Source: Malacoraja senta
Taxonomy: Eukaryota
Reading direction: 5' to 3'
DNA length: 64,000 bases
Assembly (NCBI GenBank): GCA_038087875.1
Contig: CM075988.1
Coordinates: 24,802,001 to 24,866,000 of the forward strand
This document shows positions 10,043 to 58,911 of the stretch, piece after piece. The notes under the pieces were generated by a model. That model saw nothing but the letters and a program-made list of their open reading frames with translations, was not told where the DNA came from and searched no databases. Both the position numbers and the translations under genes were made by a program. How positions within the stretch are numbered: the stretch's first letter is position 1; every line of letters begins with the position of its first letter.

Positions 10043-10242
10043 CTTCTTGCGTTTGAGGCAGCAGAAATCTGCAGCGGGGTGATGCCATCAGGTTCGACAT
10101 CCATAGGTGCCTGCCCTAAAAAGGGTGCATGCTCTGGGTTGGCGCCAAGCTGCGGCACTGCTGCTGTCTATGTGTGTTGCCGTTCGCCTGACTGAGGTCA
10201 GTTGACAGGGCTGACCACGGGGAGGTCGACAACATGAGCCCC
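10043..10242 (-). mobile_element. HDV-ribozyme-headed short retroposon, family C (200 bp)
   Basis: 12-bp TSD agcatcgaccat at 10031-10042 and 10243-10254; 3' tail ...caaacgcaagaag; 5' end is ribozyme G1. Confidence 0.9.
10175..10242 (-). ncRNA. HDV-like self-cleaving ribozyme (68 nt, with P4)
   Basis: P1 GGGGCUC/CAGCCCU (G1-U wobble, one C-C mismatch), P2 UGUUGUCG/CGGCAACA, P3 ACC/GGU, L3 UCCCCGU, GU, P4 CUGAC(CUCA)GUCAG, J4/2 CGAA. Confidence 0.88.
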
Positions 10243-13058: not shown

Positions 13059-13202
13059 CTTCTTCTTCTTCTTGCATATGGCATGCACACCCTAAAGTTG
13101 GAGGACAACTTGATCTATTTGATCTTATTTGATTGTGCACACCGGGTTGATTGCATTCGGCGAGACAGGGCAGACCTCGTGAAGGTTGCAATCTCCCACC
13201 CC
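13059..13202 (-). mobile_element. HDV-ribozyme-headed short retroposon, family A copy 1 (about 144 bp)
   Basis: About 90% identical to 58397-58538 by eye; (GAA)n tail; TSD ctagagagat / ctagaaagat at 13049-13058 and 13204-13213. Confidence 0.9.
13149..13202 (-). ncRNA. Minimal HDV-like ribozyme (54 nt), mutated copy
   Basis: GGGGUGG-GA-GAUUGCA-ACC-UUCACGA-GGU-CUGCCCU-GU-CUCGC-CGAA-UGCAAUC; P1, P2 and P3 pair; last L3 base is A. Confidence 0.8.
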
Positions 13203-22780: not shown

Positions 22781-23094
22781 CGTTTTAGTTACCTCTGCCA
22801 GAGTGAAGAAAATTGGGATGTGAGAAAGACCAATGATGCAGAAGAGCAAAGATCTTCTGCAAATCACCAAGTTGGTAACAGCAAGGCCGTAGAAGGAATT
22901 TAAAATGGGTACAATAATTTTAAAATTGAGCCATTGGCATTCTATGATGCAACAGCAGGGCAATGAGTGAACAGGACTTGGGAGTTCGGTAGGGACAGCA
23001 GAGTTTTGAATGAATTGAACTTCACAGAGGTGGCCAGAAAGCCATTGGAATTCCTAAAGGAAATTATTGTGTAAATGTGCTGAGATTCTGACCA

Positions 23095-25437
23095 GTGGTT
23101 AACCAAAAGCTTGAAATATCGGTCTGTGTTGACATCTTGATGATTCATTCCACATCTGTGACTGCAGCCTATATTCGTCCTGATGCTAATGCCAAGCTTG
23201 CAATGAAAGATCTGCATACTGCCATTAGCAAACAACAGACTCACAACCCCAAGGCAACCTTCATTGTTGCGGGTGACTTCAATCACTCCAACCTGAAGAC
23301 TGTACTCCCCAAATTCCACCAACATGTCTCCTTCGCCACTAGAGAAGACAAGACACTGGACAAAGTCTACACTAACATGGCTGAAGCTTACAAAGCCGCC
23401 CCCCTCCCCCACCTTGGACAGTCTGATCACCTCTCATTGTTCCTGCTCCCAAAGTACTCCCCACTCATCAGACGGGTTAAACCCACTGTGAGGACAGTTA
23501 AAGTCTGGTCAGAGGAGGCGGACTCCACACTTCAGCAGTGTTTTGGAAACACTGACTGGAAGGCGTTTGCAGCCCAGGCCACCCTTGACTCCCACACGGA
23601 CATTGACTCCTATACATCCTCTGTTCTGGACTTTATAAACTCCACCATCAACAGTGTCACCTCCCTCAAATGGGTGACCATATTCCCGAATCAGAAGCCA
23701 TGGATGAACAGCGAGGTCAGGCTACTGCTGAAAGCACGGGACACCGCTTTCAGGTCAGGCGATGTCCGAGCCTATAGTTCATCCAGGGCTAACCTGAAGA
23801 AGGGCAGAAAGAAGGCCAAGCACTGCCATAAGCTCAGGATTGAGGAGCACTTCAACAACAACTCCGACCCCCGACGCATGTGGCAAGGCATCCAGGCCAT
23901 CACGGACTTTAGACCCACCAACACCACCCCCACATCCAGCAACGCCTCCTTCCTTGAGGAGCTTAACCACTTCTATGGCCACTTCGATAGGGACAATCGG
24001 CAGTTGGCCATCAAGGCGGTGCTCCCTGCCGATCACCAGCCCCTCTCACTCACCCCCTACGACATGTACGTGGCACTGAGTAGGACTAATGCACGTAAGG
24101 CTGCTGGCCCCGACGGCATCCCCGGGCGCGTCTTCAGGGTCTGTGCTGCGCAGCTGACAGACGTCTGGACTGACATCTTCAACCTGTCACTTGCCCAAGC
24201 AGTTGTGCCCACGTGCCTTAAATCCACCTCCATCGTGCCGGTGCCAAAACACTCCACTGCGGCAAGCCTCAACGACTTCCGCCCAGTTGCACTTACTCCC
24301 ATCATCGCCAAGTGCTTCGAGAGGCTGGTCCTGGCACACCTCAAAGGCTGCCTACCCCCCACATTGGATCCCTATCAGTTTGCCTACCGCAAGAACAGGA
24401 GTACGGAGGATGCCATCTCAACGGCACTTCACTCCGCCCTCTCCCACCTCGACAACAGAGACACTTACGTAAGAATGCTGTTCATCGATTACAGCTCAGC
24501 ATTCAACACCATCATACCCTCTAAACTGATCACCAAACTCAGTGACCTGGGCATCGACCCCTCCCTCTGCAACTGGATACTGGAATTTCTAACCAACAGA
24601 CCCCAGTCTGTTAGGTTAGACAAGCACACCTCTTCAACCCTCACCCTGAACACCGGCGTTCCACAGGGCTGTGTGCTGAGCCCCCTCCTCTACTCCCTCT
24701 TCACCTACGACTGCACACCTGTACATGGTACTAACACCATCATCAAGTATGCAGATGATACAACGGTGAATGGCCTCATCAGCAACAACGATGAGTCGGC
24801 CTATAGGGAGGAGGTCCAGCTCCTAGCAGCATGGTGCGCTTACAACAACCTGGCCCTTAACTCCAAGAAGACCAAGGAGCTCATTGTAGACTTCAGGAAG
24901 TCTAGGGGCGGCACGCACACCCCCATCCACATTAACGGAACGGAGGTGGAACGTGTTTCCAGCTTCAGGTTCCTGGGGGTCAACATCTCCGATGACCTCT
25001 CTTGGACCCACAATACCTCAACTCTGGTCAAGAAGGCTCACCAGCATCTCTTCTTCCTGAGGAGACTAAAGAAGGTCCATCTGTCCCCTCAGATTCTGGT
25101 GAACTTCTACCGCTGCACCATCGAGAGCATCCTTACCAACTGCATCACAGTATGGTATGGCATCTGCTCTGTCTCCGACCGGAAAGCACTGCAGAGGGTG
25201 GTGAAAATTGCCCAACGCATCACCGGTTCCTCACTCCCCTCCAATGAGTCTGTCCAAAGCAAGCGTTGTCTGCGAAGGGCGCTCAGCATCGCCAAGGACT
25301 GCTCTCACCCCAACCACAGACTGTTTACCCTCCTACCATCCGGGAGGCGCTACAGGTCCCTCCGTTGCCGAACCAGCAGGTCCAGGAACAGCTGTTTCCC
25401 TGCGGTGGTTACACTACTCAACACTGTACCTCGGTGA
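23095..25437 (+). CDS. Rex1/Babar-clade LINE ORF (C-terminal part of APE endonuclease plus complete reverse transcriptase); first ~20 codons probably flanking DNA
   Basis: IVAGDFN, TLDKVY, SDH (APE); [54 protein letters not shown] (RT); no internal stop in 780 codons. Confidence 0.95.
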
Positions 25438-25616
25438 CTGCCAATCACCACCCCCCCCCCCGGACACTCCTCCCACCAGGATTTATTAGATTATTTATTT
25501 ACTGCTCATATTTATGTCGCTCTTCTAAGGAGATGCTAACTGCATTTCGTTGTCTCTGTACTGTACACTGCACAATGGCAATAAAGTTGAATCTGAATCT
25601 GAATCTGAATCTGATC
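23155..25616 (+). mobile_element. Young 5'-truncated Rex1/Babar LINE
   Basis: ORF above, 3' UTR, aataaa at about 25580 and (gaatct)n tail. Confidence 0.92.
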
Positions 25617-48932: not shown

Positions 48933-49255
48933 ATTAACTCTGTTTCTCATGGAACGCAAGGAACTGCAGATGCTGGTTTACAAAGGAAAATCACACAGTA
49001 CTGGAAAACTCGGCAGGTCAAGCAGCATCACCTAACAATATCCTCTGAGTATTTCCAGTATTTTCTACTTTAATTACTCCTCAAGTATTTCATTTGTAAC
49101 AGACTAATATATTCTGAGGTTTTGAAGGCCACTTTAATAATACAACCTTTTCATCATTTTATCCATCTAAATCTAGTGAGAAAGCTTTAATTGTTTCTCC
49201 CCTTCTCACTGTTGCCCAAGAAGAGCCTCAGTGATACCAACTGATGTCACTATTG

Positions 49256-49601
49256 GAGAGACCAGTGGAAGTCAGCGGAACCATCTAGGCTACACCAGTA
49301 CATCAATGACCCCATGGACGTCCCTGGCCAGGACCTGCCCCGAAAGCAGTGGACAACCTCAACCGCTTGAGGACAGGCATCGGACGCTATGGAGTAGCGA
49401 TGAAGAGGTGGGGCCTCGTGGACAGCGCCTCCTGCGAGTGTGGGGACCCAACACAGACAGTGGAACACAGAGTCACCAGTTGTCCCAAACACCGGCCACT
49501 GAATGGTGAACGAGGTCTGATTGACTTGGACGATGACACGTTGGCCTGGCTCGCCTCAACGGAGCTGCAGGTCTAAAAGACACACGACAGAAGAAGAAGA
49601 A
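49256..49601 (+). mobile_element. Vingi/Ingi-like LINE 3' fragment
   Basis: Continuous frame WTTLNRLRTGIGR...CECG..TQTVEH...C (zinc knuckle) to stop at 49576; very short 3' UTR plus (GAA)n; 13-bp TSD gatgtcactattg at 49243-49255 and 49602-49614. Confidence 0.85.
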
Positions 49602-49659
49602 GATGTCACTATTGTTTATAGTGGTGACCTGCATATCAACTCCTTATTTAACAAGGATC

Positions 49660-55762: not shown

Positions 55763-55990
55763 CATTTCTATACATTTTGGTTTCACCATGTAGAAATTAC
55801 AGCAGTGTTTATACACAGTTCCCCCATTTCAGGGCACCATAATGTTTGGGACACATGGCTTCACAGGTTTTTGTAATTGCTCAGGTGTGTTTAAATGCCG
55901 CCTTAGTGCAGATATAAGATAGCTCCCAGCACCTAGTCTTTCCTCCAGTCTTTCCATCACCTTTGGAAACTTTTATTGCTGTTTATCAAC

Positions 55991-57003
55991 ATGAGGACCA
56001 AAGTTGTGCCAAAGAAAATCAAAGAAGCCATTATGAGACTGAGAAACAAGAATAAAACTGTTAGAGACATCAGCCAAACCTTCAGCTTACCAAAATCAAC
56101 TGTTTGGAACATCATTAAGAAGAACGAGAGCACTGGTGAACTTACAAATCGCAAAGGGACTGGCAGGCCAAGGAAGACATCCACAGCTGACAACAGAAGA
56201 ATTATTTTTATAATAAAGAAAAATCCGCAAAAACCTGTCCGACAGATCAGAAACACTCTTCAGGAGTCAGGTGTGGATTTGTCAATGAACACTGTCCGCA
56301 GAAGACTTCATGAACAGAAATACAGAGGCTACACTGCAAGATTCAAACCACTGGTTAGCCACAAAAATATTTGGCCAGGCTACAGTTTGCCAAGAAGTAT
56401 TTAAAATAGCAACCACAGTTCTGGAAAAAAAGTATTGTGGACAGATGAGACGAAGATTAACTTGTATCAGAGTGATGGCAAGAGCAAAGTATGGAGAAGA
56501 GAAGAAACTGCCCAAGATCCAAAGCATACCACCTCATCTGTGAAACACGGTGGTGGGGGTGTTATGGCCTGGGCATGTATGGCTGCTGAAGGTACTGGCT
56601 CACTTATCTTCATTGATGATACAACTGCTGATGGTAGTAGCATAATGAATTCTAAAGTGTACAAACACCTTATCTGCTCAAGTTCAAACAAATGCCTCAA
56701 AACTCATTGGCCGGCGGTTCCTTCTACAGCAAGACAATGATCCCAAACACACAAAGGAGTTTTACAAAGCTAAAAAATGGTCAATTCATGAGTGGCCAAG
56801 TCAATCACCTGATCTGAAACCAATTTATATGCTGAAGAGAAAACTGATGGGGACTAGCCCCCATAACAAGCATAAGCTAAAGATGGCTACAATACAGGCC
56901 TGGCAGAGCATCACCAGAGAAGACACCCAGCAACTGGTGATGTCCATGGAATCACAGACTTCAAGCAGTCATTGCATGAAAAGGATATGCAACAAAATAC
57001 TAA
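55991..57003 (+). pseudogene. Tc1 transposase pseudogene
   Basis: HTH region, GRPRK, LWTDETK, VKHGGGGVMAW, QQDNDPKH, SPDL; several frameshifts; catalytic Glu after SPDL.PI appears deleted. Confidence 0.93.
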
Positions 57004-58030: not shown

Positions 58031-58396
58031 AATGGTCAATCTGTTTCACCAATGTGAAGGGGGAGGAGTTGTGCCCCATGACAGAAGGGGGAGGAGTTGT
58101 ACAGTTTGATAGTCACAGGGAAGAAGGATCTTGTTCTGTGCTGCACCTTGATGGGACCAGTCTGTTGCTGAAGGTGTTCCTCAGGCTGACCATTCCACAA
58201 ATTCCACAAATATTAGTTAATGAGTACGATCTACTTGCCATTATGGAAATATGGTTCCTGGGTGACCGAAGCTGGCAACTGCATGTTCAACAATGGTAAT
58301 TTGAAGCTTCTAACTCACCCCACCACCGATAGGAAGGATGAGTATAAAGAGAAGAGATCAGTGCCTTGCTTAGGATGATCTTGTTTTGGCAGATCA

Positions 58397-58538
58397 TCTT
58401 CTTCTTCTTGCGTATGGCGTGCACAGCCTAAAGTTGTAGGACAACTTGTTCGAATTGATCTTATTTGATTGTGCACGCCAGGTTGATTGCATTCGTCGAA
58501 ACAGGGCGGACCACGTGAAGGTTGCAATCTCCCACCCC
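58397..58538 (-). mobile_element. HDV-ribozyme-headed short retroposon, family A copy 2 (142 bp)
   Basis: TSD tggcagatc at 58387-58395 and 58539-58547; tail catacgcaagaagaagaaga. Confidence 0.92.
58485..58538 (-). ncRNA. Minimal HDV-like ribozyme (54 nt)
   Basis: P1 GGGGUGG/CCGCCCU, P2 GAUUGCA/UGCAAUC, P3 ACC/GGU, L3 UUCACGU, GU, 5-nt UUCGA in place of P4, J4/2 CGAA. Confidence 0.9.
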
Positions 58539-58911
58539 TGGCAGATCGTGATTGAATCAGAATCAATCTTGGTTGAGTTAACATATAGGAAAAGGAAGAA
58601 AGCATTGGTAAAAAAAATATTAATGGGCCACCAAAGAGAAGTTGTAATATTGGACATGGCATAAATCAAGGCCGTAACAAGGTTAAAACAATAAACATGG
58701 AGGCGTTAATCTACATGTAGACTGGATAAAACAAATTAGCACAATAAGGTGTAGGACAAAATAACAGAATATATACAAGATCAGAATGCCAAGAGGGCTA
58801 TTTCCTATCTCATTTTGTCAATGAGAAAGGGTTAATTGATAATCTTGTGGTAAAGGGGCCTTTCGGGTAGAGTAACCGAATATAATCAAATTTTATATTG
58901 AGATTGAAAGT

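Follow-up and report, generated by a model that had tools for sequence, protein, structure and literature searches.

The first third of a ~141-nt SINE-like repeat found in the analysed window (the whole stretch of 64,000 nt) is a 54-nt sequence, located at 58485..58538 on the minus strand, that folds in the manner of an HDV-like ribozyme without P4. This sequence forms the 5' head of the repeat, which continues into a 3' stem-loop module, ends in an (AAG)n tail and is referred to here as family A. The head is probably a self-cleaving ribozyme and the repeat behind it a promoter-less retroelement, a reading in which cleavage is predicted from the fold and from its place in the genome. On balance we also favour a broader proposal, in which this animal genome, probably that of a chordate, holds a guild of promoter-less retroelements with HDV-like 5' ends to which family A belongs and which consists of one RTE-like LINE together with two or more short families, the latter each combining a ribozyme, an RT-recognition module and an (AAG)n tail. 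In its top family, with at least 6,000 copies and a locus that is empty in other runs, the guild would carry a 54-nt P4-less ribozyme, the smallest natural HDV-like ribozyme in a eukaryote, and would represent a class of SINE that needs no Pol III promoter.

Fold of the family A head

All of the helices and core motifs listed for the fold were found on the minus strand between 58538 and 58485. P1 (GGGGUGG/CCGCCCU, 58538-58532 with 58509-58503) is 7 bp long and contains wobbles at G1·U and U5·G; it is followed by J1/2, GA (58531-58530), by P2 (GAUUGCA/UGCAAUC, 58529-58523 with 58491-58485), which is made up of 7 Watson-Crick pairs, and by the 3-bp P3 (ACC/GGU, 58522-58520 with 58512-58510) with its loop L3, UUCACGU (58519-58513). 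Directly after P1 comes GU (58502-58501), the 3' strand of P1.1, which is able to pair in L3, and then the connector (L4) UUCGA (58500-58496) and J4/2, CGAA (58495-58492). The latter has the form C-N-R-A, immediately precedes the 3' strand of P2, and begins with C58495, the presumed catalytic base, which is position 44 of the 54-nt head. P1 and P2 are thus interleaved, with P3 and P1.1 inside, as in the nested double pseudoknot of HDV-like ribozymes, and a G1·U36 pair is present at the predicted cleavage position, which lies 5' of the first nucleotide of P1. The P4 helix of HDV-like ribozymes is missing, UUCGA alone standing between P1.1 and J4/2. A preliminary description of this DNA had reported a 7-bp P1 with a G1-U pair, a perfect 7-bp P2, P3 as ACC/GGU, L3 as UUCACGU and only UUCGA between the GU of P1.1 and CGAA, and each of these features was recovered at 58538-58485 on the minus strand.

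Rfam gave no match at the gathering level when the whole window was searched, and a local search of 301 nt returned no ribozyme match at E<=10, only noise. When 68 nt were searched, just 2 of 4,227 families appeared at E<=10, and both are HDV-type ribozymes. HDV-F-prausnitzii (RF02682) scored 14.4 bits (E 0.58) against a gathering score of 44, its full model spanning 58538-58485 with 5 nt standing in for 20 P4 positions, and CPEB3_ribozyme (RF00622) scored 11.0 bits (E 1) against a gathering score of 35, so that both scores are far below the thresholds of their models. Our own descriptor, with a 7-bp P2, matched 0.0375 loci per shuffled window (3/80 shuffles contained at least one). At this rate of ~0.04 per 64 kb many chance hits are expected in a 1.9-Gb genome, although the fold is rare, and it is the genomic context, namely the position at the 5' end of an element, the copies and the sister heads, that lifts the family A fold above chance. 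A nested-only minimum-free-energy fold formed P2 and did not form P1, and the stability of the whole 151 nt folded was not unusual (z = -0.43).

Boundaries and copies of the element

The copy whose G1 is at 58538 is flanked by the duplications ACGAUCUGCCA and AUGAUCUGCCA. The upstream target-site duplication, ACGATCUGCCA, occupies 58539..58549 on the minus strand, directly before G1, and the downstream one occupies 58387..58397 on the same strand. In contigs of runs X15 and X17, which bear other organism labels, 58396 is joined to 58549 at single-copy depth, skipping 152 positions; this empty-site joint indicates that the copy at 58538 is recent or polymorphic. The same copy differs from ~95% of reads at two places in the body, 58452 and 58454, and is therefore a minority variant of family A. 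A second, older copy is present in the window at 13059..13202 on the minus strand (head 13202-13149), in which P1 still pairs by way of G·U and L3 and the connector are mutated.

A 181-nt query returned 419 candidates from the 1.94 Gb of genome searched, and identity to the query is 94-100% among the 40 scored. A 19-mer from the body, outside the head, had 6,074 exact matches in the genome and none in a reversed control, and the identical 54-mer head occurs in 425 copies. Thirty copies picked by the body 19-mer in genome order served as an unbiased sample (two of them, L080 and L081, share flanks). Of these, 22/30 start exactly at G1 and 27/30 within 1 nt of it, and 15/30 have a perfect duplication of 9-13 nt immediately next to the first base. 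An apparent excess of CA before G1, which could have pointed to a target preference or to an RNA starting 2 nt early, was discarded: CA precedes G1 in 25 of the 30 best-scoring copies but in only 2 of the 30 unbiased ones, and the excess arose from the ranking of matches against a query that included the flank. In one insertion (L065, at ~567.8 kb of G000:C1) the duplication overlaps the first six bases of the element, GGGGUG being present in the target, which suggests that microhomology with the cDNA end served to join its 5' end.

With its short length, non-coding sequence, high copy number, target-site duplications and LINE-type tail, family A has several of the properties by which SINEs are strictly defined. 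The Pol III-derived head (tRNA, 5S or 7SL) with an internal promoter that belongs to the same definition was not found: ARAGORN detected no tRNA in or near the family A head, and local Rfam searches of the head gave no tRNA, 5S or 7SL match at E<=10. Two further searches concerned the ancestry of the head. The 5' half of the head followed by a connector that is not short, as expected of a P4-bearing ancestor, gave 6 matches and no such family, and 78 matches in which the head stood before what seemed a different body proved to be older subfamilies of the family A element.

The 3' module and tail

The preliminary description had also held that the rest of the element is structured, with a long stem enclosing an AAGUUGU-CCU-ACAACUU hairpin, and this stem is real. 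The 3' module (58415..58480, minus strand) consists of an 11-bp long-range stem (58480-58470 with 58425-58415) that encloses the 7-bp hairpin (58447-58441 with 58437-58431, loop CCU). Its minimum free energy is -24.0 kcal/mol compared with -13.45 +/- 2.74 for 200 shuffles (z = -3.85), and 0/200 shuffles were as stable. The terminal motif CAUACGC (58410..58416), which may take part in recognition by an RT, stands just before the (AAG)4 tail (58398..58409), both on the minus strand. Both stems of the module are kept in the family A subfamilies, without compensatory change, and for this reason a role of the module in RT recognition is regarded here as putative.

Variation among family A copies

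Five positions of the head differ in at least 10% of family A reads: 58531 in J1/2, 58494 (the N of CNRA), 58497 and 58498 in the connector, and 58507, where the change turns a U·G pair of P1 into U-A. None of them falls in P2, P3, L3, P1.1 or the catalytic C. By the same threshold, the 5 variable positions in the 54-nt head compare with 14 in the remaining 88 nt.

Conservation was also counted in 26 copies out of the 29 distinct ones of the unbiased sample, after removal of L069, L088 and L093, which have an indel or are truncated, and of the duplicate L080. The catalytic C is retained in 25/26 copies, and all 17 pairs together with the catalytic C in 10/26; the N of CNRA varies (G, U, A or C), and one subfamily has CUAA as J4/2. 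Columns varying at 10% or more number 2/41 in the core versus 16/56 in the body (Fisher p = 0.003), a contrast that reaches significance because the positions expected to be free were set aside first; with all 54 head columns included, the comparison is 8/54 versus 16/56 and is not significant (p = 0.11).

Sister families and a candidate partner LINE

A looser scan of the window identified a second short element, family B, ~200 nt in length (10043..10242, minus strand) and composed of an HDV-like ribozyme, a body and a tail of the form ...ACGCAAGAAG. The ribozyme makes up the first 68 nt (10242-10175) and has a 5-bp P4, and the element is flanked by a 12-bp duplication, AUGGUCGAUGCU, at 10254-10243 and 10042-10031. 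A local Rfam search of the family B head returned RF02682 at 23.2 bits (E 0.0095), RF00094 at 18.6 bits and RF01787 at 10.6 bits. There are 838 candidates for family B in the genome, 27 of 39 non-self matches starting at G1 or 1 nt before it, and a T5 run lies inside the element at 10122-10118. A third HDV-like ribozyme, family C, was found in a flank (L025:441-528, minus strand); it has a long P4 and a G1-C pair, is matched by the CPEB3 model at 22.6 bits (E 4.5e-4), and is rare, with only two other copies seen. Family C was considered as the head of the abundant repeat that follows it and was rejected in this capacity, as most copies of that repeat start just past the ribozyme and 2 others include it.

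Scanning of the obtained sequence for (AAG)n runs led to a LINE that bears such a tail and has 5,163 candidates in the genome. The copy in the window is 5'-truncated (49256..49603, plus strand) and comprises the C-terminal coding part, a 17-nt 3' UTR ending ACACGACAG, and (AAG)4; its 12-bp duplication, AUGUCACUAUUG, is found at 49244-49255 and 49604-49615. A near-full copy of ~3.2 kb (L096:1251-4506) encodes an endonuclease and an RT domain, both read in the same direction, followed by the 17-nt 3' UTR, and the C-terminus carries a C-x-C...H...C motif. This build is RTE-like and suggests RTE as the clade of the element.

All seven LINE copies examined with unrelated upstream DNA (7/7) have a common 5' end, and this end is the G1 of an 85-nt HDV-like fold with P1 GGAGGAG/CUCCUCU, J1/2 AC, P2 AAAGACA/UGUCUUU, P3 GCC/GGC, L3 UCUACGC and J4/2 CCAA. 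Outside P4, the lengths of its modules are those of family A, and RF02682 matches 3/6 LINE heads at 18.8-19.9 bits, from the first base. At the other end, the LINE closes with CA(C/U)ACGA-CAG before (AAG)n and family A with CAUACGC before (AAG)4, so that CAYACGM and (AAG)n are common to the two 3' ends and nothing else is; the helices of the two heads differ in sequence. Patterns placing the 3' module of family A behind a different upstream sequence found no LINE that carries the module, the 10 and 6 matches obtained being deleted or truncated family A copies.

When the heads of families A, B and C and of the LINE were aligned by helix, with manual assignment of the helices (a descriptor that demands pairing had yielded three of these heads, and the LINE head alone was located independently, from its 5' terminus), 67 of 68 helix cells held standard pairs. 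In this alignment both bases are replaced in 12 of the 17 pairs and 4 pairs are invariant, while the sequence of P2 differs entirely from head to head.

RNA-seq reads at the element

Two oligo-dT RNA-seq runs, X23 and X24, cover the family A element heavily in both orientations, at ~600-900-fold depth per orientation class, and the libraries look unstranded. In neither run is there a place where many molecules begin or end, G1 included, when one fifth of the neighbouring depth is taken as the criterion. Reads running across G1 into other flanks number at least 823 in X23 and at least 831 (625 + 206) in X24; among the reads listed, at least 915 in X23 and at least 1,126 in X24 run across the 3' boundary. 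Given the lack of a 5'-end pile-up and the reads that cross G1, efficient cleavage of most transcribed copies is unsupported. Bulk transcripts are not visibly cut, which speaks against efficient cleavage everywhere; the result concerns poly(A) RNA and says nothing about a small number of source copies.

Proposed mechanism and alternatives

In the mechanism proposed here, family A copies would be transcribed as parts of longer host transcripts, within which the head would fold into the nested double pseudoknot of P1, P1.1, P2 and P3. With C58495 in J4/2 acting as the general acid, the RNA would be cut just 5' of G1 (58538). The freed RNA would start at G1 and retain, towards its 3' end, the stem-loop module, CAYACGC and the (AAG)n tail, and the RT of the abundant RTE-like LINE, with its endonuclease and RT, may use that 3' end for target-primed reverse transcription. 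New copies would then begin at G1 and be flanked by duplications of 9-13 bp. Read-through transcription, self-cleavage at G1 and a LINE enzyme acting on the module and tail would together account for the precise 5' ends of the copies, for their flanking duplications and for the tail in common with the LINE, and by analogy with active P4-less theta ribozymes the loss of P4 appears compatible with activity. The position of the fold at the 5' end of the element, the stable module, the LINE and the theta precedent all lend support to the earlier suggestion that a compact ribozyme of the HDV-like type is followed by a structure that may serve in RT recognition at the 3' end.

The main rival to the ribozyme reading is a start defined by a promoter. 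G1 would then be the transcription start, the head would be or contain an internal promoter for Pol III or Pol II, and the fold would play no part. A fixed start site would also yield sharp 5' ends, and the RNA-seq data carry no cleavage signature; in addition, the sense strand of family A nowhere contains four T in a row, so that Pol III could read through it. We nevertheless consider this explanation unlikely. The head resembles no tRNA, 5S or 7SL in the searches described above, and the T5 run in family B, an element of the same build and with the same tail, would stop Pol III. Moreover, four unrelated heads keep one fold by compensatory changes, which a promoter does not predict, and the positions that are conserved are the helices and the catalytic core.

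Several subfamilies, which together comprise at least 6,000 copies, have G1 as their start; something must have set this end generation after generation, and this is difficult to reconcile with a head that is the dead relic of a real ribozyme, inactivated by the loss of P4. The core is conserved across subfamilies and the body varies, the 54-mer is identical in 425 copies, and published P4-less ribozymes are active with connectors shorter than that of family A. A relic would fit the missing 5'-end pile-up and the finding that all 17 pairs and the catalytic C are intact in only 10/26 sampled copies, and we give it a somewhat smaller chance than a promoter. Chance resemblance within an ordinary repeat seems very improbable: while the descriptor alone, at ~0.04 per 64 kb, would produce many chance matches per genome and the Rfam E-values lie near 1, the fold lies precisely at the 5' terminus of the element, family B and the LINE each begin with the same architecture, and the CPEB3 consensus has an identical L3 and J4/2.

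Relation to known ribozymes and retroelements

According to review literature, HDV-like ribozymes occur at the 5' ends of the non-LTR retrotransposons R2, RTE, baggins and L1Tc, elements that have no promoter of their own and are freed from a co-transcript by the ribozyme; that of R2 is described there as covering ~184 nt. Family A resembles these elements in having the nested double pseudoknot at its very 5' end, where a role in cleavage is predicted, and the RTE member has a single endonuclease and RT reading frame, as does the LINE found here. Unlike them, family A carries a 54-nt head without P4 on a 141-nt non-coding element that is not a LINE.

Minimal HDV-like ribozymes such as drz-Mtgn-1 are described as having no P4, and P4-less forms are reported from phages and metagenomes. 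Theta ribozymes, likewise without P4, show in vitro activity that a C-to-U change abolishes; they are placed in Caudoviricetes phages, often at the 3' ends of tRNAs, and a search of human, mouse and protist genomes is said to have given no eukaryotic hit. The preliminary description had stated that P4 is dispensable for catalysis and that natural minimal forms are mainly reported from microbial and phage sequences. The primers used for theta imply a ribozyme of 55 nt with the catalytic C at position 45, CUAA as J4/2 and 4 nt between P1' and this C, and a cleaved product of 17.65 kDa was reported. Family A shares with theta and minimal drz ribozymes the lack of P4, a length of ~55 nt (54 nt in family A), a catalytic C near position 45 (C44) and a J4/2 of the CNAA type, and the CUAA of theta is found as well in one family A subfamily. 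The connector is 7 nt in family A (GU+UUCGA) against 4 nt in theta, and, in place of a phage context, family A is the head of a dispersed retroelement in a 1.94-Gb animal genome with no tRNA nearby.

The mammalian CPEB3 ribozyme (RF00622) has module lengths equal to those of family A up to nt 38, and its Rfam consensus is identical to family A in L3 (UUCACGU), in CCCUGU after P1 and in CGAAU at J4/2. Residues U20, C22, A23 and G25, as named in an NMR paper on CPEB3, agree with the family A numbering. The CPEB3 ribozyme possesses a P4 hairpin, has its catalytic C at position 57 and resides in the intron of a single gene, whereas family A has no P4, has C44 and exists as thousands of dispersed copies.

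Short non-coding elements that combine a ribozyme at the 5' end with a 3' end on which a LINE enzyme acts are represented by R2 SIDEs, NARTc, SINE-like elements of Schistosoma (hammerhead) and Perere-3 (twister variants), examples that come from insects, trypanosomes and flatworms. Family A is similar in form, and the use of its 3' end by a LINE is likewise proposed. SIDEs and NARTc share ribozyme sequence with their LINE, whereas the helices of the family A head differ from those of the LINE found here and the two 3' ends share only a 7-nt motif and the tail. Judged by the relationship seen in SIDEs, family A and this LINE agree in architecture and tail and differ in their helices, and the 3' module of family A is present in no LINE that was found.

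The literature searched, which excludes subscription journals and repeat libraries, contained no vertebrate or SINE-borne minimal HDV-like ribozyme and none without P4 in an animal retroelement. Ribozyme-headed LINEs and non-autonomous elements, as well as P4-less forms in phages, were already known, and what appears to be new here is the P4-less form in an animal retroelement. A P4-less head amplified to thousands of copies in an animal genome brings together the ribozymes of retrotransposon 5' ends and the minimal ribozymes of phages. Should the ribozyme reading hold, the minimal P4-less form would work in eukaryotic cells, a natural 54-nt CPEB3-like core would be at hand for mechanistic work, and short retroelements could spread without a Pol III promoter by means of a self-cutting head and a tail recognised by a LINE. 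The finding is also of interest for annotation, as thousands of such heads in introns and UTRs could cut host transcripts.

Other repeats in the window

An L2-type LINE fragment at 23092-25600 on the plus strand contains a 781-aa open frame with RVT_1 and a C-terminal piece annotated as 'ALKBH8_N', and its RT resembles mainly chordate clusters. It was considered as a partner of family A and rejected because its tail is (TGAATC)n. A short repeat of very high abundance (2,392 candidates) inserts into other elements; it was seen in the flanks of L049, L050 and L058 and at ~20038 on the minus strand of the window, and one copy (L096:1546-1640) interrupts the endonuclease region of the near-full LINE. 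The stretch at 55937-56404 on the plus strand encodes an N-terminal fragment of a Tc1/mariner-type transposase (HTH_Tnp_Tc3_2, HTH_32).
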